The notes under the pieces: generated by a model
The model's database searches: none
Seen by the model: the letters and a program-made list of their open reading frames with translations, nothing else
Told to the model about the DNA's origin: nothing
Shown here: positions 7,301 through 64,000 of the stretch, in pieces
Layout: the number at the start of each line of letters is the position of its first letter
Numbering within the stretch: position 1 is the stretch's first letter
Assembly: GCA_043798995.1 (NCBI GenBank)
Contig: JAZDOD010000011.1
Span: forward strand, 4,737 to 68,736
Direction: 5' to 3'
Length of the DNA stretch: 64,000 nucleotides
Source of the DNA: a bacterium
Lineage (GTDB): Bacteria > Patescibacteriota > Patescibacteriia > JAACEG01 > JAGUWE01
Program-made: the position numbers and the translations under genes

Positions 7301-7632
7301 AACAAAATCCGCCAAATTTAAACGGCCATAATCTAAAAGGTCTGATTAAGATGGCTGGGGTAATTACCAAAATTCAAAAAGTTTTTACTCGAAGCGGCGA
7401 GCCAATGATTTTTGCCAATCTGGAAGATACAACCGGCAAAATTGAGATTTTAGTTTTTCCGAGCACTTTGAACCAAACCAGCCACATTTGGCAGGAAGAA
7501 AAAATTGTTATTGTTTTGGGCAAACTTTCAGATAAAGAAGGAGTGCCGAAATTGCTTTGTCAGGGAGTTTGCGAAGTGACCCCGCTTAATGTGAAGGAAA
7601 TAGCGCAAAGATTAAAAAGAGAAAATCGCTAA
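4342..7632 (+). CDS. dnaE: DNA polymerase III alpha subunit
   Basis: PHP domain MKFVHLHTHSHYSLLDG, 1096 aa pol III alpha architecture. Confidence 0.95.
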   Translation: MKFVHLHTHSHYSLLDGLAKIDELINKAKEDCAEALALTDHGVMYGVIEFYQKAKAAGIKPIIGCESYIVPHSRHQKGPLANEERHHLILLAKNQVGYHNLIRLTTYAHLEGFYYKPRIDWELLEKYHQGLIGLSACLQGEIPTAILSGNLKKTEDVLAKYLNLFGREDFYLELQHHPTMPEQARVNKALLDLAKKFKVQVVATNDVHYLNKEDAEAQDILLCLQTKKKREDKDRMSFLGEDFSFKSQEEMIASFHDCPEAIQNTVKIAESCDLEIELGKVTLPHFEVPSGKTADEFLHELCLEGLALRYGKRSGDAEYLERLDYELKIIKKTGFASFFLIVQDFVNWAKKQNIVVGPGRGSAAGSLVSYVLNITDIDPLIYDLLFERFLNPERVSMPDFDLDFADIRREEVIRYVEEKYGRDRVAQIITFGTMAARAAIRDVGRVMALSYSYCDKIAKMIPFFSSLSQALNTNVELRELYLKDPNAKELLETAKKLEGVARHASTHACGVLITREPLYNYVPLQFASSGDKTIVSQYSLHPIEDLGLLKMDFLGLKNLTLIENVHEIVQKTRGEDIKIEKIPLDDKKTYRLLQRGETTGVFQLESSGMRRYLKMLKPTEFEDIIAMVALYRPGPMEWIPDFIDRKHGQKKIVYLHSKLEPILKKTYGVAIYQEQVMKIARELAGFTLGEADILRKAVGKKIPHLLTKQKKKFIEGCVKNNVSAKLAEQVFSFIEPFAGYGFNRSHAACYAMIGYQTAYLKANFPVEFVAALLTSEEGSTEKINLIVQECLAMGIEVLPPDINESFKHFTVLPKSEKPTIRFGLLAIKNVGENVINVIVHERKQNGSYQNLEDFLSRIKCKDLNKKSLESLIKSGALDRFGERAQMLYNIEKILSFIKEIQKNSQDKQANLFGATSSGQFAKLNLEKFETASEKQKLTWEKELLGLYISAHPFKSFEPYLKEIMVNCYEINKLAQKENDIEYVPDGEQNPPNLNGHNLKGLIKMAGVITKIQKVFTRSGEPMIFANLEDTTGKIEILVFPSTLNQTSHIWQEEKIVIVLGKLSDKEGVPKLLCQGVCEVTPLNVKEIAQRLKRENR

Positions 7633-7680: not shown

Positions 7681-7745
7681 TTCCGCCCGAGGCGTGCGCC
7701 CGAGGCCCATCCGCCTCTGGCGGAGATCCGCCTTTGGCGGAAACT
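7681..7745. repeat. 64-bp palindromic MITE-like repeat (family B: TTCCGCC...CCGCCTTTGGCGGAA), intergenic copy
   Basis: Near-identical to copies at 13117-13180 and (reverse-complement) 46184-46245; terminal inverted repeat TTCCGCC/GGCGGAA. Confidence 0.7.
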
Positions 7746-7759
7746 TTTAAGTTTATTTT

Positions 7760-8920
7760 ATGTTTGATTACAAAAAAATCGCTTTTATTTATCTTGGTTT
7801 GTCAATTTTGATTTTAGGCGCGGTTTTATATTTTACTTTATATAAAGCAACGATTATTATTACTCCGGCGGTGGAAAAAATGAGTTTAAATTTTGATTTA
7901 GTTGTTAAGGAAGTGCCTTTTGTTTCGCCTGACGACACAACCACCATTCCTGGTAAAATTTTTTCCGAGGAAAAATCTCTAAACGAAACTTTTTCAGCTA
8001 CGGCCAGCCAGAAAGTTGAAGTTACAACCTCGCCTAAAGTCACTTTGATTAATACTACCAATCAGAATCAGACTTTAATCGCCACCACGCGGCTGCTGAC
8101 GCCGGAAAATCATCTTTTTCGGCTAAAAAACAGGGTGATAGTGCCGGCCCAAGGGCAGATAGAGGCTGAAGTTTATCCCGATGATTCTAAATTAGAGGTT
8201 AATTTAAATAAAACCCGCTTGACGATTCCGGGCTTAAACAAGGAACTTCAGCAAAGAATTTATGGGCAAGCTCAAGATCTTGTTACCGGCAAATCGCGCG
8301 AAGTAAAAGTGATAAATCAGGTTGATCTGGACCAAGCCAAAGGAGCTCTTACTCAGAAATTATATGAAGAAATTGTCTCCGGTTTTAAAAATCAGTTAGT
8401 TGAAGCCAGTAACGACAAATTAGCCGCTAACATTTATGCCGCCGATACTTTAAAGATAGTCGGCAGCCGTGAAGTTTTAGAATCTCAAACTGATAAAACC
8501 GCCGGTGATATTTCCGACTCATTTGAACAAAAATTAAAATTAAAAGTAGTGGCCGCTGTTTTTGACGAGGCGCGACTCTTGGATTTAGCCAAACGCAAAT
8601 TAAATTCCTCCATCCCCAGCGATAAACAATTAATTGATATTGATAAGAAAAGTTTTAACTACTCGGTTGAAAGCTACGATCTGGCAGCAAAATCCATTAA
8701 TTTAAAGGTTTATGTTGATGGCAAAATAGTTATATCAGAAAAAAGCGGTTTTTTGGATAAGAGTAAACTTACAGGCCTGACCAAAGAAGAAGTGAATAAA
8801 TATTTTACTCAGTCACCGGCCATTAAATCAGTGGAAATTAAATTTTTACCCTTTTGGCTAAAACGAGTGCCTGCTTCTGTTGAAAGAATCACGGTTATTA
8901 TCAATCAACCAGCCATTTAG
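7760..8920 (+). CDS. Hypothetical membrane-anchored protein
   Basis: N-terminal TM helix (IAFIYLGLSILILGAVLYFTLY), 386 aa, no family recognised. Confidence 0.55.
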   Translation: MFDYKKIAFIYLGLSILILGAVLYFTLYKATIIITPAVEKMSLNFDLVVKEVPFVSPDDTTTIPGKIFSEEKSLNETFSATASQKVEVTTSPKVTLINTTNQNQTLIATTRLLTPENHLFRLKNRVIVPAQGQIEAEVYPDDSKLEVNLNKTRLTIPGLNKELQQRIYGQAQDLVTGKSREVKVINQVDLDQAKGALTQKLYEEIVSGFKNQLVEASNDKLAANIYAADTLKIVGSREVLESQTDKTAGDISDSFEQKLKLKVVAAVFDEARLLDLAKRKLNSSIPSDKQLIDIDKKSFNYSVESYDLAAKSINLKVYVDGKIVISEKSGFLDKSKLTGLTKEEVNKYFTQSPAIKSVEIKFLPFWLKRVPASVERITVIINQPAI

Positions 8921-10047: not shown

Positions 10048-11907
10048 ATGTCAAGCCAATCCACCTTCGCTAAAACTTCAGCCGACGTCAAAGCTTTGTC
10101 GGAAAAATCGGCGAACAAGAAAGATAAAAATCAATCTAAAGATAAACTTGAGATTATGCGCCATTCTTTGGCTCATCTTTTGGCCGCTGCGGTTTTAGAA
10201 ATTATTCCCGAGGCGAAATTTGCTATTGGTCCGGCGATTGAGAATGGCTTTTATTATGATTTTGATTTACCCGCCGAAGCCTTGGCGAAGGCGGGTCTGT
10301 CCAAAACTCTTACCCCCGAAGATTTGCCCAAAATTGAAAAAATAATGAGCCAGCTGATTAAAAAGAATCTAAAGTTTGAAAAAAAAGTTCTGCCAATCAA
10401 GGAAGCAATCGCGACTTTTAAGGAGTTGGGCCAGGATTATAAAGCGGAATTGTTGGCAGATTTAAAAAAAGAGGGAGAGAAAGAAGTCTCGGTTTATCAA
10501 ACCGGTAATTTTCTTGATCTTTGCCGCGGGCCGCACATTGACTTAAGCGGCAAAGTTGGCGCTTTTAAATTAACTCATCTGGCCGGCGCTTACTGGAAAG
10601 CTTCGGAGAAAAATAAGATGCTCACCCGGATTTATGGCCTGGCTTTTGCCACGCAAAAAGAATTAGACGATTATTTAAAAATGTTAGTTGAAGCTGAAAA
10701 ACGAGACCATCGCAAATTAGGGCAAGAATTGGATTTATTTAGTTTTGACGAGGAATTCGGCCAGGGCTTGCCGCTTTGGCATCCCAAGGGCGCTATTCTT
10801 CGTCAAGTAATGGAGGATTTTGTTTTGAAAGAATATTTAAAGCGCGGTTATCAGTTAGTCAGAACCCCGCATATTGCTAGTTTGGAAATTTTTAAAACTT
10901 CGGGTCACTGGAATTTTTACCGCGAGAGTATGTATAGCCCGATGAAGATTGAAAATGAAGATTATATTATTAAGCCGATGAATTGTCCGGGCCACATTAA
11001 AATTTACAAAACGCAACTGCGAAGTTACAGGGATCTCCCGATTCGTTATACCGAACTGGGCGCGGTTTATCGCTATGAAAAATCAGGCACTTTGCATGGC
11101 CTGACGCGCGTGCGCGGTTTTACCCAGGACGACGCGCACATTATCTGCGCCCCAGGCCAACTCAAACAGGAATTAATAGAAGTTATTAAATTAGCCAAAT
11201 ATATTTTAAAAACTTTTGGCTTTTCCAATTTTGAAGTTAATTTAAGCATCCGCGACCCGGAAAATAAAAATAAATATTTAGGCGATGACAAACATTGGCA
11301 ACTGGCAGAAAAATCTTTAGCCGAAGCGATGAAAGAGGAAGGATGGCAGTTTAAGATTGATGAAGGCGAAGCTGTGTTTTACGGACCAAAAATGGATATT
11401 AAAGTCAAAGATGCTATTGGTCGGCCTTGGCAGATTTCCACGCTTCAAGTTGACTTCAATCTGCCCGAGCGTTTTGATTTAACCTATATTGATGAAAAAG
11501 GTAAAAAGCAGCGCCCCATTATGCTTCACCAGGCGATTTTAGGGTCGCTTGAAAGATTTACCGGTCTTTTGATTGAACATTATGCCGGCGCTTTTCCAAC
11601 TTGGCTTTCGCCCGTGCAAATTAAAATTATTCCGGTTGGCAAAGACCATTTTAAATATTCAGAAAAATTAGCCGAGGAGTTTTTGGCTAATGATTTTCGT
11701 GTAGAAGTCGATAATTTAAATGAAACCGTGGGCTATAAAATCAGAAAAGCCGAAAAGCAAAAAGTGCCTTATATGTTAGTGATCGGCGACAAAGAAACAA
11801 AAGGCAAAACTCTGAATGTGCGCCACCGCGATGAAAAAGACATGGTCCGAATGACGATTAAGAAGTTTATTGAGAGGATTAAAAGAGAGGTTGAAGAGAA
11901 GAAATAA
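10048..11907 (+). CDS. thrS: Threonine--tRNA ligase
   Basis: Class II motifs HRKLGQELDLF and TPHIASLEIFKTSGHWNFYRESMY; N-terminal editing-domain HxxxH (MRHSLAHLL). Confidence 0.95.
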   Translation: MSSQSTFAKTSADVKALSEKSANKKDKNQSKDKLEIMRHSLAHLLAAAVLEIIPEAKFAIGPAIENGFYYDFDLPAEALAKAGLSKTLTPEDLPKIEKIMSQLIKKNLKFEKKVLPIKEAIATFKELGQDYKAELLADLKKEGEKEVSVYQTGNFLDLCRGPHIDLSGKVGAFKLTHLAGAYWKASEKNKMLTRIYGLAFATQKELDDYLKMLVEAEKRDHRKLGQELDLFSFDEEFGQGLPLWHPKGAILRQVMEDFVLKEYLKRGYQLVRTPHIASLEIFKTSGHWNFYRESMYSPMKIENEDYIIKPMNCPGHIKIYKTQLRSYRDLPIRYTELGAVYRYEKSGTLHGLTRVRGFTQDDAHIICAPGQLKQELIEVIKLAKYILKTFGFSNFEVNLSIRDPENKNKYLGDDKHWQLAEKSLAEAMKEEGWQFKIDEGEAVFYGPKMDIKVKDAIGRPWQISTLQVDFNLPERFDLTYIDEKGKKQRPIMLHQAILGSLERFTGLLIEHYAGAFPTWLSPVQIKIIPVGKDHFKYSEKLAEEFLANDFRVEVDNLNETVGYKIRKAEKQKVPYMLVIGDKETKGKTLNVRHRDEKDMVRMTIKKFIERIKREVEEKK

Positions 11908-12756: not shown

Positions 12757-12852
12757 TGTCATTCCTGCGGAAGCAGGAATCCAGAGAAGTTATTTTATCA
12801 ACCAATCCTGACAAATTAAAATCTAGATTCCGCATCAAGTGCGGAATGACAT
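12757..12852. repeat. MITE-like element, family A (TIR GTCATTCC/GGAATGAC enclosing two palindromic hairpins)
   Basis: TGTCATTCCTGCGGAAGCAGGAATCCAGA ... GATTCCGCATCAAGTGCGGAATGACAT; same ends as the GIY-YIG unit at 19161-19542. Confidence 0.65.
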
Positions 12853-12878: not shown

Positions 12879-14021
12879 ATGAAAAGTAACACAAAAAAGA
12901 ACTTAAGTCAAGGCACAAACAATCGATATCATATTATCACCCATGGTTGTCAGATGAATGTTTCTGACAGCGAAAAAATCGTCGGTCTTTTGGAAAGGCA
13001 GGGTTATCAGAAAGCTAAAGATGCTAAATCGGCCAATTTAGTAGTAATTAATGTTTGTTCGGTGCGCCAGTCGGCGATGGACCGCGTTTATAGTAAAATA
13101 AAAGAATTACGAATTTCCGCCCGAGGCGTGCGCCAGAGGTCCATCCGCCTTTGGCGGAGATCCGCCTTTGGCGGAAAGAATTTAAAATTATTCCCTGAGC
13201 AAAGTCGAAGGGTAAGAATAATTTTAGCGGGATGCCTTTTAGAGACAGATAAAAAGAAATTAAAAGATAAAGTTGATGAGATTTGGTATCCTGACAAATA
13301 TTTTAGCATGGCTTCTTGCCGTGAAAATAAAAATTTAGCTTACGTGCCGATTATGACGGGGTGTAATAATTTTTGCGCCTATTGCGTCGTGCCGTATACC
13401 AGAGGTAGGGAAAAATCAAGATCAGCGTTAGAGATTATTAAGGAAGTAAAAAGATTAATTAAAAGTGGCTATAAAGAAATTGTGTTGATAGGGCAGAATG
13501 TTAATAGCTATTCATGTAACATGGAACATGAAACCTGTAACACAATTAATTTTCCAAAATTATTGAAAATTATCAATGATTTGCCGGGTGATTTTTGGTT
13601 GCGATTTATGACGAGTCATCCTAAGGATATGTCGGATGAACTGATTGAGGCGGTGGCAAAATGCGGGAAAGTCAAAAAAGAAATTCACCTGCCAATCCAA
13701 AGCGGCGATGACGAAATTTTAAAAAAAATGAATCGTGGCTACACTGTGAAAAAATATAAAAATTTAATTAAAAAAATCCGTCAAAAAATACCCGGCGTTA
13801 AAATTTCTACTGACGTGATTGTCGGTTTTCCCGGCGAAACAAAAAAACAATTTCAAAATACAGCCAAGCTTTTCCGCCAAATTAAATTTAACAAGGCCTA
13901 CATTGCCAAATATTCTCCTCGTCATGGCACGGCTGCGGCTAAGCTCAAAGATGATGTTTCACCGCAGGAAAAGAAAAGACGCTGGCAGATTTTAGAAAAA
14001 ATAGCTAATCAAAAGAAATAA
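12879..14021 (+). CDS. miaB: tRNA methylthiotransferase (MiaB/RimO radical-SAM MTTase family) carrying an in-frame repeat insertion
   Basis: MTTase N-domain HGCQMNVSDSE, radical SAM CNNFCAYCVVPYTRG, TRAM region; in-frame foreign peptide from the repeat at 13117-13180. Confidence 0.85.
   Translation: MKSNTKKNLSQGTNNRYHIITHGCQMNVSDSEKIVGLLERQGYQKAKDAKSANLVVINVCSVRQSAMDRVYSKIKELRISARGVRQRSIRLWRRSAFGGKNLKLFPEQSRRVRIILAGCLLETDKKKLKDKVDEIWYPDKYFSMASCRENKNLAYVPIMTGCNNFCAYCVVPYTRGREKSRSALEIIKEVKRLIKSGYKEIVLIGQNVNSYSCNMEHETCNTINFPKLLKIINDLPGDFWLRFMTSHPKDMSDELIEAVAKCGKVKKEIHLPIQSGDDEILKKMNRGYTVKKYKNLIKKIRQKIPGVKISTDVIVGFPGETKKQFQNTAKLFRQIKFNKAYIAKYSPRHGTAAAKLKDDVSPQEKKRRWQILEKIANQKK
13117..13180. repeat. 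Family-B 64-bp palindromic repeat inserted in frame within miaB
   Basis: Near-identical to 7681-7745; encodes SARGVRQRSIRLWRRSAFGGK without stop codons. Confidence 0.7.
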
Positions 14022-14029
14022 ATAAAAAT

Positions 14030-15058
14030 ATGTCAACTCTTTCACTTAAACCACCAAAAATTATCGCTGTTTTAGGAACAACCGCTTCGGGCAAAACCAA
14101 GCTGGCAGTTAGATTAGCTTATCTGTTTAATGGTGAGATTGTCTCAGCTGACAGCCGACAGGTTTATCAAGGTATGGATATCGGGACAGGGAAAGATCTT
14201 GACGATTATATCATCAAAGTCAAAAGTCCCATGCCTACCGGCCCGCTTCGCCGTAGCTTCAGCGAGGCGAGCAGGCAGGAAAAGTCAAAAGTCAAAATTT
14301 TTGAAATTCCATATTATTTAATTGATGTGGTAAGCCCCAAAAAGCAGTTTAATCTGGCGGATTATCAACGTTTGGCTTATCAGGCAATTGATAAAATTTT
14401 AAAAAAAGGCAAACTGCCAATCTTAGCCGGCGGCAGCGGACTCTACCTTCAGGCCGCGGTTGATGGCTGGCTTTTATCAAAAGCAAGACCAGACAGAAAA
14501 TTACGCCAAGAATTAGAAAAGAAGAAAACGAGCTGGCTTTTTTCTTTTTTAAAGAAACTGGATAAAGATTTTGCTAAAAAAGTCAGTCAAAGTGATCAAA
14601 AAAATAAAAGGCGACTGATTAGATATATTGAAATAAAATTAGTCGAGACAAAGAGATTGCCACACTCCTTTCAATCGCTCGCAATGACAGGAGGTGGATA
14701 TGATACCTTACTTCTCGGCCTTACTTATCCCAAAGAAACTTTAAACCAAAGAATTGATAAAAGACTGGAGGAGCGGCTTGAACAAGGTCTGATTGAAGAA
14801 GTTAAAAGATTGCGTCAACAAGGTTTAAACTGGCAGCGTTTAGAGCAATTCGGCCTGGAGTATAAATTTGTGGCTTATTATCTGCAGGGCAAATTAGATT
14901 ATGAAGAAATGGCAGAAAAATTAAAAACAGCAATTCAGCAATTTGCTAAAAGGCAACTTACTTGGTTTCGGCGCTGGCAGAAAATGGGGGCTAAAATTCA
15001 TTGGATAAAAAGTGAAAATGAGGCCAAAAAATTGATTAAAAAATTTTTAAAAAGATAA
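14030..15058 (+). CDS. miaA: tRNA dimethylallyltransferase
   Basis: P-loop GTTASGKT, SADSRQVYQGMDIGT, LAGGSGLY; ~25 extra residues from repeat at 14226-14285. Confidence 0.9.
   Translation: MSTLSLKPPKIIAVLGTTASGKTKLAVRLAYLFNGEIVSADSRQVYQGMDIGTGKDLDDYIIKVKSPMPTGPLRRSFSEASRQEKSKVKIFEIPYYLIDVVSPKKQFNLADYQRLAYQAIDKILKKGKLPILAGGSGLYLQAAVDGWLLSKARPDRKLRQELEKKKTSWLFSFLKKLDKDFAKKVSQSDQKNKRRLIRYIEIKLVETKRLPHSFQSLAMTGGGYDTLLLGLTYPKETLNQRIDKRLEERLEQGLIEEVKRLRQQGLNWQRLEQFGLEYKFVAYYLQGKLDYEEMAEKLKTAIQQFAKRQLTWFRRWQKMGAKIHWIKSENEAKKLIKKFLKR
14226..14285. repeat. Palindromic repeat (family E) inserted in frame in miaA
   Basis: GGCCCGCTTCGCCGTAGCTTCAGCGAGGCGAGCAGGCAGG is the reverse complement of the repeat at 39950-40010; flanked by AAAGTCAAAAGTC direct repeats. 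Confidence 0.5.
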
Positions 15059-19160: not shown

Positions 19161-19542
19161 TGTCATTCCTGCGGAAGCAGGAATCCAGACGATTAAAGAT
19201 CATAATACAGATCTTGCCAGTTAGGATTTGATTTTTCAATTAATTCTAATTTCCATTTTCTCTTCCATTTTTTTAATCTTTTTTCACCCTCGATAGCACT
19301 TTCTATACTAGCCGTTTCTTCGTAATAAACTAAATTATGGATTTTATACTTTTTCGTAAAACCGGAAATTAAATCGTTTTTATGTTCGTAAATCCTCTTT
19401 TTTAAATTTGATGTCACTCCGATATATAGAGTACCATTTCTTTTACTTGCCAAGATATAAACGTAATAAGATTTCATTGTTTTCTGGATCCCGCATCCCG
19501 CCTGCATTAAAATTACGGCGGGCAGGCAAGTGCGGGATGACA
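19161..19542. mobile_element. ~382-bp GIY-YIG-encoding unit bounded by inverted hairpin ends (TGTCATTCCTGCGGAAGCAGGAATCCAGA ... TCTGGATCCCGCAT...GTGCGGGATGACAT)
   Basis: Both ends occur fused, without the gene, as the 61-bp MITE at 55868-55928. Confidence 0.6.
19193..19477 (-). CDS. GIY-YIG nuclease family small protein
   Basis: MKSYYVYILASKRNGTLYIGVTSNLKKRIYEH...; the first 22 codons of the listed ORF lie in the right hairpin end, so start moved to M23. Confidence 0.8.
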   Translation of the reverse strand: MKSYYVYILASKRNGTLYIGVTSNLKKRIYEHKNDLISGFTKKYKIHNLVYYEETASIESAIEGEKRLKKWKRKWKLELIEKSNPNWQDLYYDL

Positions 19543-39865: not shown

Positions 39866-40045
39866 ATTTTCCTTTGTCTTTCAGGGCTTATTAAAATGTC
39901 ATACTGAACTCGTTTCAGTATCTCACAGAGAATTCAAAAAGAGATCCCAAAACCCGCCTGCTCGCCTCGCTGAAGCTTATGACGAAGCGGGCCAACGAGG
40001 CAGGCAAATTCGGGACGACAACTTAAGAATAAGGAATAATAAGCC

Positions 40046-44940: not shown

Positions 44941-46050
44941 ATGATAAAAACCAAAAAAATTTGTCCTGAGCACTTCGATTTCACTCAGTGTAAACTTCGT
45001 CAAAGGGTTTTAGTGGCCATGTCCGGCGGAGTTGATTCGTCGGTGGCGGCTTGGCTTTTAAAAAAACAAGGATTTGAGGTTAGGGGAGTTTTTTTGAATT
45101 TAGGGCAAGTTAAATATAAAGAATCAGTTGTGGCAACTAAAAGAGTAGCTAAAAAGATAGGCATTCCCTTTCGAGTTATTGATATAAGAAAAGAATTTGA
45201 AAAGGAAGTGGTTGATTATTTCTTGCAAAGTTATTTCCATGGCCTGACACCTAATCCTTGTGTAGTTTGCAACCAGAAAATTAAGTTTGAGACCCTTCTT
45301 AAATTGGCTAAAAAATATAGGGCCGATTTTGTGGCAACGGGTCATTATGCCCGGCTCCGCCGTAGCCGACAGCCGACAGCCGACAGCCGACATCTCTTAA
45401 TCCTTTGGCAAGCCAAAGACGAAAAAAAGGATCAGTCGTATTTTTTATATACTTTGAAGCAAAAACAATTGGCCAAAATATTATTCCCCCTGGGCAATTT
45501 AACCAAAGAGGAAGTAAAAAAAATAGCGGACAAAAATTATTTACCTTATTTCAAAAAAGAAAGTCAGGATATTTGTTTTTTATTTTGTGAAACTTCTGAA
45601 TTTTTAAAACAAAATCTTAAACTAAAGCCCGGGCCGATTGTCACAACAGCGGGCAAACTCATTGGCCGACACGAGGGCTTGCCGCTTTATACTTTAGGCC
45701 AGCGCCGAGCAGTTAAAATCGGCGGCATCGGGCCTTTTTATGTGGTCGGCCGCGATTTTAAAAAAAATCAATTAATTGTCACGGGCAAATTTGACGATTC
45801 GGTTTTGTATTCAGATAAACTTTTAGCCGGTCAAGTTAACTGGCTTGCTGGCGAAAGCCCAAAATTGCCTTTGAAATGTCGGGCGCGAGTCCGTTACCAA
45901 CAGCCATTGGTTGATTGCTTGGTCAGCAAAAAAGGCAAAAACTATCTGGTTAAATTCAAGCAAAAACTGCGCGCTATCACACCGGGACAGTCGGTGGTTT
46001 TCTATAAAAATAAAGAGATATTAGGCGGGGGAGTTATCGTTGACGAATAG
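44941..46050 (+). CDS. mnmA: tRNA-specific 2-thiouridylase
   Basis: PP-loop VAMSGGVDSSVAA, ATGHYARL, DQSYFLY; contains heptanucleotide repeat. Confidence 0.9.
   Translation: MIKTKKICPEHFDFTQCKLRQRVLVAMSGGVDSSVAAWLLKKQGFEVRGVFLNLGQVKYKESVVATKRVAKKIGIPFRVIDIRKEFEKEVVDYFLQSYFHGLTPNPCVVCNQKIKFETLLKLAKKYRADFVATGHYARLRRSRQPTADSRHLLILWQAKDEKKDQSYFLYTLKQKQLAKILFPLGNLTKEEVKKIADKNYLPYFKKESQDICFLFCETSEFLKQNLKLKPGPIVTTAGKLIGRHEGLPLYTLGQRRAVKIGGIGPFYVVGRDFKKNQLIVTGKFDDSVLYSDKLLAGQVNWLAGESPKLPLKCRARVRYQQPLVDCLVSKKGKNYLVKFKQKLRAITPGQSVVFYKNKEILGGGVIVDE
45364..45391 (+). repeat. Tandem heptanucleotide repeat (AGCCGAC)x4 inside mnmA
   Basis: Four perfect tandem 7-nt units translated as SRQPTADSR. Confidence 0.8.
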
Positions 46051-46142: not shown

Positions 46143-48095
46143 ATGACAGCTAAAGAAGTCCGCGAAAAATTTTTAGATTTTTTTTCCGCCAAAGGCGGAT
46201 CTCCGCCAAAGGCGGATGGACCTCTGGCGCACGCCTCGGGCGGAAAAGGTCATACCATTATCCCTTCGGCGCCGCTTGTTCCAGAAAACGATCCAACGGT
46301 GCTTTTTACTACGGCCGGTATGCATCCTTTGGTGCCTTATCTTCTGGGCGAAGACCATCCGGGTGGGAAAAGGGTGGCCAATGTTCAGATTTGCCTAAGA
46401 ACCGATGATATTGAAGAAATCGGCGACAATCGGCATTTGACTTTTTTTGAAATGCTGGGCAATTGGAGTTTCGGAGACTATTTTAAGCGCGAGGCGATTG
46501 AGTGGAGTTTTGAATTATTAACCTCTAAGGATAAAGGTTTTGCTTTGGATCCGAAACGATTATACGTCACAGTTTTTGGCGGCGTTAAAGAATTAGGTTT
46601 AGAGCGAGACGAAAAGTCAATTAAAATCTGGCAAGAAGTTTTTGCCAAAGCTGGTTTAAAAGCTGAAGTTGCCGACGAAGGTAATATTTGGAAAAATAAA
46701 AATATAAGAATTTTTCCTTTGGGCATGAAAGATAATTTTTGGGGACCGGTTGGAGAGATTGGTCCTTGCGGTCCTTGCACCGAAATGTATTATGATCTCC
46801 ACCCAAAAAAAAAACACAGCAAAGTATCATTTGATGATTTGATTGATCAGTTTAGATTTTTGGAAATTTGGAATGATGTTTTTATGGAATTTAATAAACT
46901 GTCCGATGATAAATATGAATTGTTAAAGCAAAAAAACGTTGATACGGGTATGGGCGTGGAACGAATGTTAGCCGTCTTAAATAATAAAGAGAATATTTTT
47001 GACATAGAACTTTTTAGCGCAGTTTTTGAAAGTATAAAAAAATTGTCGGATAAAAATTATAATAATTGTCAAAAGGAATTTAGAATTATAGCCGACCACT
47101 TAAAAGCCGCGGTTTTTATCTTGGCGGAAAACATTGAACCGTCTAACGTTGATCGCGGCTATGTGCTTCGCCGTCTTATTCGCCGGGCCATTCGTTGCGG
47201 CAAACAAATCGGCATTAAAACTCCTTTCACCCATAAAATCGCCGAAGTTATCATTAATCTTTATCAAGATCCGTATTTGCATCTAAAGAAAAATCAGGAT
47301 TTTATTATTGAGCAACTGGTCAGAGAAGAAGAAAAGTTTGGCGAAACCCTGGAAAAAGGTTTAAAACAATTTAAATTTTTAATCAGGCGTAAATTAATAA
47401 TTACTCCCGTTGAACCGGGATCGCCAACCACCGATATAAAAGATAAAATGAAAATTACTGGCAGAGAAGCGTTTGATTTATATCAGACCTACGGTTTCCC
47501 CTTAGAGTTAATAAAAGAATTGGCAAGAGAAAATAGATTTACAGTTGATGAAGATGGTTTTAATGAGGAAATGAAACACCATCAAGAGCTTTCGCGCACT
47601 GCCGCGGCCGGTATGTTCAAGGGCGGTCTTTCAGACCATTCGGAAATTGCTACCCGCTATCATACGGCCACGCATTTGCTTTTGGCGAGCTTACGGAAAG
47701 TTTTGGGCGAACACGTTTTTCAGCGCGGCTCAAATATTACGGCCGAAAGATTGCGTTTTGATTTTTCCCATTCGGAAAAGTTGACGCCCGAGCAGATTAA
47801 ACAGGTTGAAGATTTGGTTAATCAAAAAATTCAAGAAGGTCTGCCGGTCAAGGTTGAAGAAATGACGGTTAACGAAGCCAAAGCCCAAGGCGCTATCGGC
47901 GTTTTTGAGCAAAAATACGGCGAGCGAGTTAAGGTTTATACGATTGGCCTCTCGACAAGCTCGGGGTCTATTTTCAGTCAGGAAATTTGCGGCGGACCGC
48001 ATATTAAAAATACCCGACAGCTTGGTAAATTTAAGATTATTAGAGAAGAGGCTAGCTCTGCTGGTGTAAGGAGAATAAAAGCGGTATTGGAGTGA
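46143..48095 (+). CDS. alaS: Alanine--tRNA ligase (short form lacking C-terminal domain) with in-frame repeat insertion
   Basis: FLDFFSAKG...HTIIPSAPLVPENDPTVLFTTAGM, editing-domain HTATHLL, CGGPH; 650 aa. Confidence 0.9.
   Translation: MTAKEVREKFLDFFSAKGGSPPKADGPLAHASGGKGHTIIPSAPLVPENDPTVLFTTAGMHPLVPYLLGEDHPGGKRVANVQICLRTDDIEEIGDNRHLTFFEMLGNWSFGDYFKREAIEWSFELLTSKDKGFALDPKRLYVTVFGGVKELGLERDEKSIKIWQEVFAKAGLKAEVADEGNIWKNKNIRIFPLGMKDNFWGPVGEIGPCGPCTEMYYDLHPKKKHSKVSFDDLIDQFRFLEIWNDVFMEFNKLSDDKYELLKQKNVDTGMGVERMLAVLNNKENIFDIELFSAVFESIKKLSDKNYNNCQKEFRIIADHLKAAVFILAENIEPSNVDRGYVLRRLIRRAIRCGKQIGIKTPFTHKIAEVIINLYQDPYLHLKKNQDFIIEQLVREEEKFGETLEKGLKQFKFLIRRKLIITPVEPGSPTTDIKDKMKITGREAFDLYQTYGFPLELIKELARENRFTVDEDGFNEEMKHHQELSRTAAAGMFKGGLSDHSEIATRYHTATHLLLASLRKVLGEHVFQRGSNITAERLRFDFSHSEKLTPEQIKQVEDLVNQKIQEGLPVKVEEMTVNEAKAQGAIGVFEQKYGERVKVYTIGLSTSSGSIFSQEICGGPHIKNTRQLGKFKIIREEASSAGVRRIKAVLE
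46184..46245. repeat. Family-B 64-bp palindromic repeat (reverse orientation) in frame within alaS codons ~15-35
   Basis: Reverse complement matches 13117-13180; encodes GSPPKADGPLAHASGGKG between conserved FFSAKG and HTII. Confidence 0.7.
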
Positions 48096-48191: not shown

Positions 48192-48196
48192 AAACT

Positions 48197-48230
48197 GGGG
48201 GGTCGTCTAATGGTAGGACACCAGCCTTTT
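48197..48230 (+). other. Diverged duplicate of tRNA-Gln 5-prime half, ending in the anticodon loop
   Basis: GGGGGGTCGTCTAATGGTAGGACACCAGCCTTTT vs TGCGGGATCGTCTAATGGTAGGACCGCGGCCTTTG. Confidence 0.45.
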
Positions 48231-48306
48231 CCGCCGGAGGCGGACTCGCCTTTTCCGCCAAAGGCGGATCTGCCTTGGGCATGAGGCGAGGAAGCCGAAA
48301 ATAAAA

Positions 48307-48645
48307 ATGTATTACACTTATATATTAAAAAGCAAAAAAGACGGAATTCGTTATGTTGGTAGCGGTGAAGATGTATTAGAAAGATTACGTCGGCATAATA
48401 AAGGTGACCATCAATTTACAAAAGGGCACCGACCTTGGGAATTAATTTATCAAGAAAAATATAGCACAAGATCAGAAGCTATGAGGCGTGAAAAATTTTT
48501 AAAATCAGGTCAAGGAAGAAAAATTTTAGATGAGGTTCTCGGCAAGGCTGCGGGATCGTCTAATGGTAGGACCGCGGCCTTTGAAGCCGTTAATCATGGT
48601 TCGAATCCATGTCCCGCAGCCTTGCCGAGAAATAGTAAAGAGTAG
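48307..48645 (+). CDS. GIY-YIG nuclease family small protein; reading frame runs through tRNA-Gln
   Basis: MYYTYILKSKKDGIRYVGSGEDVLERLRRHNKG; last ~30 codons overlap the tRNA, true C-terminus uncertain. Confidence 0.7.
   Translation: MYYTYILKSKKDGIRYVGSGEDVLERLRRHNKGDHQFTKGHRPWELIYQEKYSTRSEAMRREKFLKSGQGRKILDEVLGKAAGSSNGRTAAFEAVNHGSNPCPAALPRNSKE
48549..48619 (+). tRNA. tRNA-Gln (anticodon TTG)
   Basis: Hand-folded: acceptor TGCGGGA/TCCCGCA with U1-A72, D stem GTCT/GGAC, anticodon stem GCGGC/GCCGT loop CTTTGAA, T stem CATGG/CCATG loop TTCGAAT, discriminator G. Confidence 0.85.
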
Positions 48646-48720
48646 GAGAGACGGCCTTTTCCACTGGGGGCGGACTTGCTTGTCCCGCCTTGGCGGGGCG
48701 GCCTCCTTGCCCCGCTATAG

Positions 48721-48760
48721 GCGGGGTGAAGAGCCGTTAATCATGGCCCGCCCCGCACCA
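48721..48760 (+). other. tRNA-Gln 3-prime-half-like fragment ending in CCA
   Basis: TGAAGAGCCGTTAATCATGG matches the tRNA from anticodon loop through T stem, then CCCGCCCCGCACCA. Confidence 0.35.
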
Positions 48761-48840
48761 ATCCTAAGTAAAATTTTCCTAATTTTTCCATTTGTGCTAA
48801 AATTAAGTTAAAAGATATTTAACATTAATTTTTTAATTTT

Positions 48841-60300: not shown

Positions 60301-63300
60301 CAAAACCATATGGACAACAAAACATTCAAAGTCAAAATGCTGGTTGTTTTTGCCATCACGGCAATTACTTTGCAACTTGGCATTTTTAGTATTCAAGCTT
60401 TTGCTCAAGAAGCAGATGCGCCAACCGAAGCGGTTGAGGCCGCAACGGAACCGGCTGTAGAGCCAGCACCCGCCACCGAAGGTGTCGAGGCGATGCCCGC
60501 CACCGAAGGTGTCGAGGCAACGCCGGCTATAGAAGAAACTGCCTTGGCAGCCGAAGAGGCTGCTCCGACAGAAGAACCCGCCTCCGATGGAGTCGAGGCA
60601 GGGCTTAATTATTGTCCGGTAAATCCTGAAATCACTACTGCCGCTGCCAGCGAACCAGCTCCCGCTCCGGTTTTAACAACTGACAAAGCTGATTACGCTC
60701 CTACAGAAAAAGTCACCATTTTCGGCAGACTATTTCAAGCTTTGCAAAATTTAATTTTAAGAATTGTCGGCGGCTTTCCAGATGGGAGCCAGCAAGTGAC
60801 CCATGAAGACACGGTTACTACCGACGACCAAGGCGCTTTTACTTATGAATACCAACTGGACGGCACCTACCGCCCGGATTATACCGTTACCGCCAGCAGC
60901 GAAGCCGGCGAAGAATTGGCGAGAACGACCTTTACGGATCCTCCCGCCGGATTTAATCCTTCAGTTTCAATTGATCAATGTGCAAACGGTGGTATCGGTA
61001 ATACTCCCGAAAGCTGTGCAACCAAACCGCCTCTTTCAAATGCCACTTATCAATCAGGTAATGTTAATGGGCAAAAAGCTCATTGGCAAGAAGGAGATGT
61101 ATTGCCGTATAGAGCTGTTTTAAAAGATTTAGCCGCTGGGATTAACAGAGTAACTTTTAGTTTTGATACTGCTAAAGGTAGCGAAATGAAACATGCAATA
61201 GATTATCTTGCTAGTTTTGATTATACCGAAACAACAGGCCCAGCAACGCCAAATCATGCAAATCAGAATAATCCTTGTGCCGATACAATCGTCGGATGCA
61301 ATCCGGCAGCTCCGACCGCGACAGCAAATATAAATGTTCCAAGTTATTTTACAACAGGATATCCAATAGCATGTGCTAATGGAGCTTGGGCTGGTGGTAA
61401 TCCAATTGCTAATCAGCAAATCAAAGCCTGGGGTAATATAGATTCTTCAATGATTCTCACTTATCCTGATGGCGGGATTCCAACTTCCGGTGATTGTTCT
61501 CCAAGATTCACAATTGAGTTTAATGTAACAGTCGCGCATTCAGATGTAGTTATCGCTTGGGGCGGACACGTAGCGGCAAATCAAGATCCCGGAGCCGGAG
61601 GTTATTGGGGTACAGGAAATGCCGTACCAACTGGATCACCTTATCATATGCATGCAGGGTTTCCCCAGGAAAGTCCTAGCGGGACATTTTATCAAGTAGG
61701 CAATCAAGATTTACAGCTTGCCTCTTCTGCCATATCCGCACCTGGTTCAATCGTCATTATTAAAAATACTGTAGGCGGTGATAATACATTTAATTATACG
61801 GCAACTGGTGGAGGAATAACTTCGCCTTTTTCTATCACGACTAGCGGCGGAGCTAATAGCGTAACTTTTGGCAGTTTAGCAACCGGAGCCGCTGGCGGAA
61901 GTCGTAGCATTACAGAAAATACTCAACCAAGCGGTTGGGGATTTACAAGTCTTTCATGCCAGGTTACGGTCGCAGGTGATGGAACAACAGCATATTCTAT
62001 AACAGGACCGACCGTTAACGTAACAAATTTAGGAGGCGGCGCTTCTTTAACCTGTACTTATACTAACACACTTCAAACAGGTCATGTTATTATCGTCAAA
62101 GATGCAATTCCTAATGATGCCCAAAATTTTGCATTCGCGAATAACTTCGGAAATGGAAATCCAGCATCATTTAATTTAGATGATGATGCCGACGGCACTT
62201 TGTCTAACTCCAGAGATTCCGAAGTCTTAGCTGGTACTTATGCCGTTTCCGAAACCGTTCCATCCGGCTGGGATCTTACTTCTGCCACTTGTGATCATGG
62301 CACAATTGGAGCTATACAAGTTTTAGCCGGACAGACAACTACCTGCACTTTTACCAACACCAAGCGTGGTTCAATTACTATTATCAAAAATACAATTGGT
62401 GGTGACGGAACATTTAATTACACCAGTAATTTTGGTGTAAGTTCGTTAACTACCAGTGGCGGCACTGCTTCGCAAACTGTTAATGATTTAGTTCCAGGAA
62501 GCGGTTATAGTATTTCAGAAACCGTTCCAGCTGGTTGGGATCTAACCAGCGCAACCTGCGATCACGGTACGATTGGCGCTATACAAGTTTTAGCCGGACA
62601 AACAACTACCTGTACCTTCACCAATACCAAACGCGGACATATTATTGTTGATAAAGTAACCGATCCGTCTGGCGATCCGCAAAGCTTTGCCTTTACCACA
62701 ACCGGTTCTGGCTATAACGGTTTTTCATTAACTGATGCCGCAGCCCCGAACAACCAAGAAGTTGCACCAGGCGCTTATTCGGTTGCCGAATCTGTTCCTG
62801 CCGGCTGGGATCTGACTTCTGCCACTTGCGATATGGGCGAGACGCCCGCGAGTTTAGATGTCGAGCCTGGCGAAACAGTAACTTGTACCTTTACCAACCA
62901 AAAAGACGCCATTATAATTATTGAAAAGCAGACCTTGCCAGATGGTGATTCACAAGTTTTTGACTTTGACTTAAGTTACGGGGATGGCGATGCTGACTTG
63001 TCTGACGGCCAAACTGATAACTCCGGTGATTTAGATCCGGGTACCTATTCGGCTTGGGAAAACGTTCCTGCCGGTTGGGACTTTACTTCCGCTGTTTGCA
63101 GCGATCAAAGCCCCGTAGGAGCTATATCTTTACAGGCCGGTGAAACAGTCACTTGTGTCTTCACCAACACCAAGCGCGGACATATTATCGTTGATAAAGT
63201 AACCATTGGCGGAGATGCCACTTTCTCGTTTGACGCCAGCGGCGGAACAGATCCAGCTTATGCTAATTTCACTCTTACCGGCGCACAAACGCCTAATAAT

Positions 63301-64000
63301 CAAGAATTAAAACCAGGATCTTATTCCGTATCCGAAGGCGCATTGGCCGGTTGGGATTTAACTAACACAGTTTGCGTCAGTTCAATTGGCGACACGGAAA
63401 CCGCCGGCAGCTTAGAATTAGACGCTGGCGAGACCGTTACCTATACCTTCACTAATACCAAGAAACCAACCTTAACAGTAAATAAAGTTTTAGTTCCCTC
63501 AAGTGATAATGGTTTATTCAATTTACAAATAGATAGTTCTACTGCCGGTACCGGCGCAAATGTCGGTGATGGTGGAACAACCGGAGCGGTAGAAGTGACA
63601 ATCGGCGCTCACACCGTTGGCGAAACCGCCGGCACCGGTACTGATTTATCACACTATGTAACCGTAATCAGTGGTGACTGTGCCGCTGACGGAACCGTAA
63701 GTTTAGCTGCCGGTGAAAACAAGACCTGCACTATTACCAATACTAGAAAAGGCAGCATCACAATTAAGAAGGTCACAGTTGGCGGTGATGCCAGCTTTAC
63801 CTTTACCGGTGATGTGGCCGGTTCATTAAGTAATAATCAAACAGCTACAGCTCAAGTTGTGCCCGGTACTTATCATTCAACTGAAACCGTACTTACTGGC
63901 TGGGATTTAACGAATATTACTTGCAACGATTCTGACAGTTCTGGCGTAATTAGTACTGGCGTTGCTACCTTTAATGTGGCAGCCGGTGAGGATGTCACGT
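60301..64000 (+). CDS. Giant cell-surface adhesin-like protein with tandem SpaA/CnaB-type (prealbumin-fold) domains; open at window end
   Basis: Signal peptide; A/P/E-rich linker; >=9 ~100-aa repeats with GxYxxxExxxAGWDLTxxxC ... TCTFTNTKRG; frame checked codon by codon, no stop through 64000. Confidence 0.8.

Follow-up and report, generated by a model that had tools for sequence, protein, structure and literature searches.

Is a palindromic repeat that is read in frame within a gene a native part of the encoded protein, or a mobile sequence that has entered the gene and been tolerated there? This question is raised by the methylthiotransferase gene miaB on a 64-kb stretch of contig JAZDOD010000011.1 (assembly GCA_043798995.1), which comes from a member of the Patescibacteria, for which Candidate Phyla Radiation (CPR) is another name. 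The whole 64-kb stretch was analysed and is referred to below as the window; homologues are labelled P for proteins and L for contigs. In-frame invasion of essential genes by palindromic repeats is a textbook oddity of Rickettsia, and a first-pass annotation of the window had proposed a comparable event in miaB. We conclude that a selfish palindromic repeat has very probably entered this gene recently, in frame, and been tolerated there.

The palindromic repeat inside miaB

The first-pass annotation had described a 64-bp palindrome at 13117-13180. The segment is palindromic and the quoted string was exact, but the coordinates lay 2-4 nt too far to the right. The core spans 62 nt (13115-13176), and a T before it and an A after it, common to all three copies in the window, extend the palindrome to 64 nt (13114-13177). 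The further claim that the repeat is in frame and stop-free inside miaB was borne out, as the open reading frame (ORF) at this position is MiaB by Pfam and NCBIfam and reads through the repeat without a stop (...KELR-ISARGVRQRSIRLWRRSAFGGK-NLKL...). The miaB copy is in the orientation termed 'sense' for the family and corresponds to residues I79-K100 (peptide ISARGVRQRSIRLWRRSAFGGK); a tryptic digest of this MiaB would be expected to yield SAFGGK. A count of stop codons, read directly from the element sequences, gave none in any of the six frames of the window-type repeats. The ORF reads straight through because the element has no stops and because the net length change, given below, is a multiple of three.

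As RNA, the miaB copy folds at -41.2 kcal/mol (z = -5.1 against shuffles). The stems of its two tandem hairpins were 100% and 99% paired over 20 copies, and a single compensatory change (G-C to T-A) was seen. Against an expectation of 0.18, 11 occurrences of the hairpin unit were counted, and the 62-mer is present in three copies at ≤3 mismatches against 0.00 in shuffled sequence. These three copies, listed in Table 1, lie in both orientations and on one replichore.

An identical copy had been reported at 7681-7745, which proved mistaken. The copy there covers 7681-7742 and carries three mismatches, while the identical one, overlooked in the first-pass annotation, lies at 46184-46245 within alaS. 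The alaS copy is read as FLDFF-SAKGGSPPKADGPLAHASGG-KGHTIIPS, where FLDFF is helix 1 and the peptide of the element is (F)SAKGGSPPKADGPLAHASGG(K). A terminator scan flagged neither the intergenic copy (7681-7742) nor the miaB copy. The weaker GC-rich stretch that follows the repeat in the same MiaB loop (13193-13212) probably represents what is left of a further small inserted hairpin; at this site the closest miaB relative has a different hairpin, CCCCGAACC-N11-GGTTCGGGG.

Table 1. Repeat copies, their host genes and adjacent features in the window
Feature	Position	Strand	Remarks
Palindromic repeat, 62-nt core	13115-13176	+	Exact string match; inside miaB
Two tandem perfect hairpins, TCCGCC-TTT-GGCGGA	13144-13158 and 13161-13175	+	Best-conserved portion of family members
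Second, weaker GC-rich stretch, CCCTGAGCAAAGTCGAAGGG, peptide PEQSRR	13193-13212	+	Same MiaB loop; putative repeat
miaB ORF, 380 aa, CPR type lacking TRAM	12879-14021	+	Hosts the repeat; Pfam, NCBIfam, alignment, AlphaFold2
miaA, intact	start 14030		9 nt downstream of miaB; Pfam
Repeat copy matching that in miaB at 62/62 positions	46184-46245	-	In frame inside alaS, opposite orientation
alaS ORF, 650 aa	46143-48095	+	Second genic host; Pfam, NF002436 (725.8 bits)
Repeat copy with 3 mismatches	7681-7742	+	Intergenic; dnaE stop at 7632, next ORF start at 7760

Absence of the repeat from the closest relatives

The MiaB alignment comprised 30 CPR proteins, namely the window protein and 29 homologues. 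Most of the aligned proteins have a short KINKFY-KTKK-IILAGC junction, at which the window protein carries ~31 extra residues. In other lineages the same junction holds unrelated inserts of 0 to ~25 amino acids (aa). Judging from this alignment, the helix-to-strand junction is a length-tolerant loop that is hypervariable among CPR MiaBs.

The closest MiaB relative (P0002, encoded on contig L001; 79% aa identity) is without the 62-nt element at the DNA level. Compared with this relative, the window gene shows a net gain of 54 nt, a multiple of three, and the repeat adds ~18-21 residues to the protein. A similar picture was obtained for the second genic host. The closest alaS (P0122, contig L002; 93% nt identity over 600 nt) has an empty site, in which GATTTTTTCC is joined directly to AAGAAAAAAAGCAC across a 54-nt gap, and in the solved alanyl-tRNA synthetase of A. 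aeolicus (1riq) the two flanks of the insert are contiguous (FFEKKGHTRV).

The element is therefore polymorphic for presence and absence, as both the miaB of L001 and the alaS of L002 are without it. The first-pass annotation had asked for orthologues to be aligned, and for presence or absence in sister genomes to be checked, on the ground that a segment conserved in relatives would be native MiaB sequence; the relatives are without the segment and the native reading is excluded on that check. Because the closest miaB and alaS relatives lack the element, the segment is an insertion and not native sequence. The intergenic copy and the reversed in-frame alaS copy on the same contig, together with the empty alaS site in the sister contig, identify it as a dispersed DNA repeat that was inserted in frame.

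State of the host protein

The 380-aa ORF matched the Pfam families UPF0004 and Radical_SAM and scored 362.6 bits against NCBIfam TIGR01574, for which the cut-off is 355.3. The MiaB signature is present, with a UPF0004 N-terminal domain bearing three cysteines and a radical-SAM CxxxCxxC core. The 30-sequence alignment showed that the invariant cysteines are kept in the window protein (C60 and C119 in the N-terminal domain, and C162/C166/C169 in the radical-SAM domain), and the remaining invariant columns are kept likewise. No match to the C-terminal TRAM RNA-binding domain (PF01938) was found in the window MiaB, which is ~60 aa shorter than the canonical protein; most of its close CPR homologues are also without TRAM.

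The AlphaFold2 model of the window MiaB had a mean pLDDT (predicted local distance difference test) of 80, and its best match in the PDB was MiaB 7mjz (E = 5e-31, TM-score 0.79). The native elements around the insert were modelled confidently, with a pLDDT of ~90 for the next native strand (113-119). The insert region itself was of low confidence (block means 61, 58 and 50); here, the chain continues the helix 64-96 and then enters a disordered stretch. The model, at pLDDT 50-61 in this part, places the inserted peptide at the length-variable junction between helix 3 and strand 4. In a flavodoxin-like topology, the loop from a helix to a strand is found at the opposite edge from the loops that bind the clusters, and the insert loop would be on the far side of the domain from the iron-sulfur clusters. 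From its sequence, the insert-bearing MiaB is expected to stay functional.

The repeat family across Patescibacteria

The census outside the window was performed with DNA pattern scans alone, in which part of the sequence was fixed by the patterns. The genome scan covered one genome per species and used the 3' 24-mer of the element as its pattern. It returned six matches, all of them full-length, so the unconstrained 5' 38 nt are also conserved. According to their record titles, the hosts are Patescibacteria group bacterium, Saccharibacteria, Jorgensenbacteria and Wolfebacteria metagenome-assembled genomes (MAGs), and unclassified Parcubacteria are also named across the records. The metagenome scan used a pattern over the 5' and central part of the element and returned 43 contigs, mostly from groundwater, in which the unconstrained 3' hairpin is conserved as well; 29 positions in these matches were fixed by the search pattern, and conservation at those positions is partly by construction. 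The scans thus gave ~50 further copies in diverse Patescibacteria, on host contigs that range from 36% to 55% G+C.

The recovered copies comprise 38 distinct element sequences, 62-66 bp in length, with the inverted ends TTCCGCC/GGCGGAA. Variation among them is located in the triloops of four small hairpins. Of the two sub-families distinguished, the rarer one includes the window copies. A four-hairpin model (94% of cells paired) and a single long hairpin (91%) both fit the data; one to two compensatory changes speak for the small 3' hairpin, and covariation is too sparse to choose between the models.

Other searches gave little. No element match was found among the viral contigs of IMG/VR, which leaves a phage vehicle without support. 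Rfam returned no family on the element at E ≤ 1, and only two tRNAs over the whole window. The 30-aa peptide covering the insert had no match at E ≤ 0.001 among 1.8 billion representative proteins, and a doubled 44-aa insert peptide query gave one candidate.

Hosts, phase and orientation of the genic copies

After the collapse of redundant contigs, ~21 independent insertions in long ORFs were counted among ~36 independent sites in the sample, and most of the gene identities were confirmed by Pfam. The alaS host carries the element at one site in three lineages and a shorter, two-hairpin version in a fourth. Two lineages have it at one N-terminal site of valS, in orientations opposite to each other, and a second valS site is occupied as well. 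The remaining hosts are a class II (Gly-type, glyS) synthetase, miaA, tsaD, mfd (two sites), transketolase, a P-type ATPase, ArsA, PfkB, GH1, GvpL/F, a metallo-beta-lactamase (MBL)-fold protein, a FlgD_ig-domain protein, one unknown ORF and the window miaB. In a Parcubacteria MiaB (P0084, contig L054), a related 53-nt element with the same termini occupies the same loop in the same phase. Several insertions recur in independent assemblies from different projects, namely alaS in L003/L005 and in L008/L049, and valS in L007/L024/L030.

The ValRS of the Saccharibacteria contig L009 additionally holds two more degenerate inserts derived from the family, SSRGGSLSKTDGPRAHALGGDS and FSAKGGSALGRQF. 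Contig L040 combines the 5' flank of L015 with the 3' flank of L022/L042, joined at the element, which points to chimeric assembly or to recombination at the repeat.

All of the ~21 genic copies share one phase (xxT TCC GCC ... GGC GGA Axx), for which the probability by chance is ~1e-9. The orientation is also skewed, as 19 copies are read antisense, giving the peptide (F)SAKGGSPPKADAPxEHASGG(K), and two are read in sense, in the window miaB and in the valS of a Saccharibacteria MAG. Intergenic copies are, relative to their neighbouring genes, 8 sense and 7 antisense (Fisher p = 0.007 against the genic copies). Many family members contain stops in the unused phases and none contains a stop in the antisense phase that is used. 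The junctions of the antisense reading would yield the tryptic peptides ADGPLAHASGGK and ADAPLEHASGGK. We infer that the bias in phase and orientation reflects selection on the encoded peptide and not the insertion mechanism. A strand-specific insertion of the IS200/IS605 type was considered as the cause of the orientation bias and provisionally rejected, given the 8:7 ratio of the intergenic copies and the occurrence of both orientations on one replichore in the window.

Age and mobility of the element

At element position 26, the miaB and alaS copies of the window both have a T, which is seen in none of the other distinct sequences recovered. Similarly, one Saccharibacteria MAG has alaS and valS copies with a common, private loop variant, and a separate 'master' variant seems to exist in each genome. 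The identity of the genic copies in the window and the sharing of genome-private variants point to copying of the element within each genome, as read from these sequences.

The copies are also highly alike between distant lineages. The alaS copy of the window matches that of L003 at 61/62 positions and that of the Saccharibacteria contig L008 at 57/62, whereas the synonymous-type third positions of the flanking alaS are 49% and 31% identical, respectively. Element copies are thus 92-98% identical between lineages in which the synonymous sites of alaS are saturated. The alaS copies may be far younger than the lineages, the same site having been entered repeatedly; otherwise, homogenisation or constraint would have kept them alike.

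No consistent target-site duplication was observed: flanking direct repeats are missing in many copies and measure 2 to 9 nt in others, which is near chance for AT-rich flanks. The flanks do extend the palindrome, with T at position -1 in 30/33 copies and A at +1 in 31/33.

Proposed origin and alternative explanations

The reading that we consider highly likely can be set out as follows. The repeat would be one copy of a short, non-autonomous, GC-rich palindromic family that is dispersed across the CPR, each member being an array of four small stem-loops. This copy would have been placed recently within the genome, by some copying mechanism, into the MiaB methylthiotransferase-domain loop between helix 3 and strand 4; the ORF has gained ~18-21 residues in a freely variable loop. 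The element would be transcribed and translated as part of MiaB, and the insertion would be a tolerated selfish passenger, not an adaptation. Insertions would land in either orientation; within genes, as the census suggests, selection on the peptide would keep almost exclusively one phase, and mainly the antisense reading. The antisense reading would supply a flexible peptide rich in Gly, Ser, Pro and Ala, and miaB would be a rare survivor of the sense reading, which is rich in Arg and Trp.

That the segment is instead native, lineage-specific MiaB sequence, whose likeness to other sites is coincidence or protein-level homology, has practically no probability left. The length of the helix 3-strand 4 junction does vary among CPR homologues, but the closest relative is without the segment, the identical 62-mer lies reversed in alaS and encodes a different peptide there, the copy with three mismatches is intergenic, and other genomes have ~50 copies in unrelated genes and in spacers. 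It is scarcely credible that metagenome assembly joined a repeat into miaB by mistake. The miaB insertion is present in one assembly only and L040 looks chimeric at the element; the element, however, is shorter than a sequencing read, its flanks are contiguous miaB with the frame kept, and the same type of insertion recurs identically in independent assemblies at alaS and valS. It is also improbable that the gene is a young pseudogene, inactivated by the insertion, with an ORF that is open only since the element is stop-free. As the element is free of stops in six frames, little can be concluded about function from the open frame; the peptide added by the sense reading is strongly basic (seven Arg and one Trp), and the rarity of sense genic copies (2/21) suggests that they are usually harmful. 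Against inactivation, the net gain of 54 nt keeps the frame, no other lesion was found and the invariant residues of the family are all kept, the TIGR01574 score exceeds the equivalog cut-off, and an intact miaA follows 9 nt downstream. Moreover, the same loop takes inserts of up to ~25 aa elsewhere, including a related element, and the model keeps the fold.

A further explanation, which is unlikely and yet not mutually exclusive with a selfish insertion, holds that the element is kept for a function. This function could reside in the DNA or RNA (a signal for binding or uptake, a cruciform, or structured mRNA by which the ribosome is slowed) or in the peptide (a flexible linker); in MiaB, an Arg-rich patch could aid tRNA binding in an enzyme without TRAM, a domain missing from the window protein and most of its close homologues. 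Copies that are 92-98% identical where the synonymous-type third positions of alaS are 31-49% identical would fit such a role, as would the concentration of variation in the four triloops, with stems kept and one to two compensatory changes, and the occupation of the same alaS, valS and miaB loops in several lineages. The closest relatives nevertheless manage without the element, its density of 3 copies/64 kb is far under that of known uptake sequences, the host genes are functionally unrelated, and opposite orientations at one valS site give unrelated peptides. The covariation is weak, with the long-hairpin and four-hairpin models both fitting, 29 positions of the metagenome matches were imposed by the pattern, and no Rfam match was obtained.

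Several points weigh against the selfish insertion that we favour. The ends of the miaB insertion cannot be fixed to the nucleotide, since the loop aligns poorly and a 65-nt gap is offset by an 11-nt gap against L001. Translation of the element and activity of the insert-bearing MiaB are predictions from sequence. The strong nucleotide conservation across distant lineages is unlike that of a neutral passenger, unless the insertions are recent or the copies homogenised. The number of independent events depends on a manual collapse of redundant metagenome contigs. No transposase partner was identified, though without a systematic scan of the ORFs in the window, and no consistent target-site duplication was seen; mobility is accordingly deduced from the distribution of the copies. 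The 65-nt and 11-nt gaps had also raised a frameshift with compensation in the miaB loop, which was discarded because the alignment of this AT-rich loop is too poor to support it.

Other repeats and inserts in the same region

A second GC-rich family was observed next to miaB. Its ~40-nt core, GGCCCGCTTCGCCGTAGCTTCAGCGAGGCGAGCAGGCAGG, lies in frame in miaA (14241-14279; peptide GPLRRSFSEASRQ), in a stretch that is skipped by the Pfam IPPT profile, and an inverted, ~90% identical copy lies at ~39950-39990 in a repeat-rich intergenic region. Together with the inserts of the miaB loop, the miaA core brings the repeat-derived inserts of the miaB-miaA pair to at least three. Two further hairpin families (TGTCATTCCTGCGGAAGCAGGAATCCAGA... 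and ...GATTCCGCATCAAGTGCGGAATGACAT) were found just upstream of miaB at 12757-12852, as one pair, and at 19161, 50522, 54667, 55886 and 59791.

Among the MiaB homologues, P0002, P0049, P0083, P0099, P0107 and P0112 have long inserts rich in Gly, Arg, Pro and Ser after GQNVNSY, e.g. ...SSPQMRGGLRRGGDKKTPPPPAPSSTEEG... (alignment columns ~290-345). These look like translations of other GC-rich repeats, and in-frame repeat invasion seems to be general in these genomes. In the window, GC-rich islands were also seen in two other AT-rich genes. In thrS (10269-10302), the hairpin ACCCGCCGAAGCCTTGGCGAAGGCGGGT is read as PAEALAKAGLS in ThrRS, and in mnmA (45338-45391) there is a run of three GCCGACA units. 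Both may be other in-frame repeat insertions.

Following alaS, within 48196-48800, a GIY-YIG-type ORF (48307 to ~48545) runs into a tRNA-Gln (48549-48621). Upstream of this ORF lies a tRNA-like 5' half, GGGGGTCGTCTAATGGTAGGACACCAGCC, followed by TCCGCC-NNN-GGCGGA hairpins, and a GIY-YIG gene likewise follows alaS on the sister contig L002. The locus may be related to the homing endonucleases and tRNA introns that reportedly occur in Patescibacteria. At 62221-63927, the window contains 4-5 coding tandem repeats of ~270 nt that are 60-84% identical; their TCTFTNTKRG-type motif is characteristic of the repeated Ig-like domains of surface proteins.

Implications

A wider claim can be made, for which we see the case as evenly balanced: that one ~62-nt hairpin array circulates across the whole CPR as a 'protein-invading' selfish repeat, >90% identical between phylum-level lineages with housekeeping genes saturated at synonymous sites, multiplying in each genome, repeatedly entering the same alaS, valS and miaB loops in either orientation, and surviving within genes almost exclusively in one codon phase. 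If this is true, it would imply either that horizontal spread is ongoing, with a copying mechanism so far unrecognised in genomes regarded as poor in mobile DNA, or that the hairpin array has a conserved function. The element would then be a systematic source of new peptide segments in the core proteins of the CPR. Its conservation across lineages points to DNA exchange among CPR bacteria or to a trans-acting factor.

The behaviour known from Rickettsia would, with its occurrence in the CPR, prove to be a more general outcome of genome reduction in AT-rich symbionts, here with another, much shorter element that crosses lineages. It may help to explain the odd loop inserts, rich in Gly, Ser and Pro or in Arg, that are often seen in CPR aminoacyl-tRNA synthetases, MiaA/MiaB, TsaD and Mfd and that confound annotation, alignment and structure prediction. 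The insertions can further be regarded as a natural experiment that reveals which loops tolerate ~20 extra residues and which readings of one DNA sequence are tolerated.

Comparison with known systems

In the full-text literature, of which coverage is incomplete, no description of such elements in the CPR or Patescibacteria was found. The element resembles REPs (repetitive extragenic palindromes) and REPINs in being composed of short, GC-rich, imperfect palindromes of ~15-17 nt in pairs or arrays, and in its 'master' variants per genome. REPs are extragenic by definition and mostly carry a GTAG or CGTC tag at one end (PMC3733652). In contrast, two of the three window copies and most of the others are intragenic, and a direct reading of the 62-mer found neither tetranucleotide on either strand. 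REPs and REPINs are mobilised by RAYT (Y1 HUH) transposases; no RAYT gene was seen, although no search aimed at one was made.

[quoted passage not shown] The CPR element shares with these its small size, its terminal inverted repeats (TTCCGCC...GGCGGAA, in most cases with a further T(T)/A(A)), the lack of a transposase ORF and the occasional in-frame insertion, but it has no consistent target-site duplication and its genic in-frame fraction is far above the usual. We know of no parent insertion sequence with the same ends.

The GC clusters and 'byp' elements of yeast mitochondria are likewise mobile, GC-rich palindromes that invade the coding genes of an AT-rich genome. Some of these elements are skipped by translational bypassing, so their frame need not hold. 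The CPR element, unlike these, is always found in frame and in a single phase, as would be expected if it is translated in the ordinary way.

The likeness proposed by the first-pass annotation was to the Rickettsia palindromic elements (RPEs), which are described as in-frame repeats inside unrelated ORFs (Ogata et al., 2000, summarised in PMC10969869). The results supported this analogy, given the dispersed repeat, its in-frame placement and the empty sites in relatives; in-frame insertion of a dispersed repeat is what RPEs are defined by. Both systems consist of dispersed palindromic repeats of a reduced, AT-rich genome, with genic and intergenic copies, no transposase of their own, and in-frame copies in unrelated housekeeping ORFs that are read as an extra peptide. 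The sites are compatible with the fold in RPEs and may be so in the CPR element, in which the hairpin stems are 94% paired and the host genes are unrelated and undisrupted. The differences are equally clear. RPEs are ~100-150 bp long and found in Rickettsia only, whereas the CPR element measures 62-66 bp, consists of four REP-like triloop hairpins and occurs across Patescibacteria lineages, where it is 92-98% identical although the host genes are saturated, with a strict phase and a strong orientation filter. It is set apart from RPE-1 to RPE-10 by length and host, a distinction made without comparison of consensus sequences. The first-pass annotation was therefore right to see an RPE-like insertion and too narrow in scope, as the family is found in frame in ~20 genes across Patescibacteria. 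The element is an RPE-like selfish repeat, representing a new family in a new superphylum.

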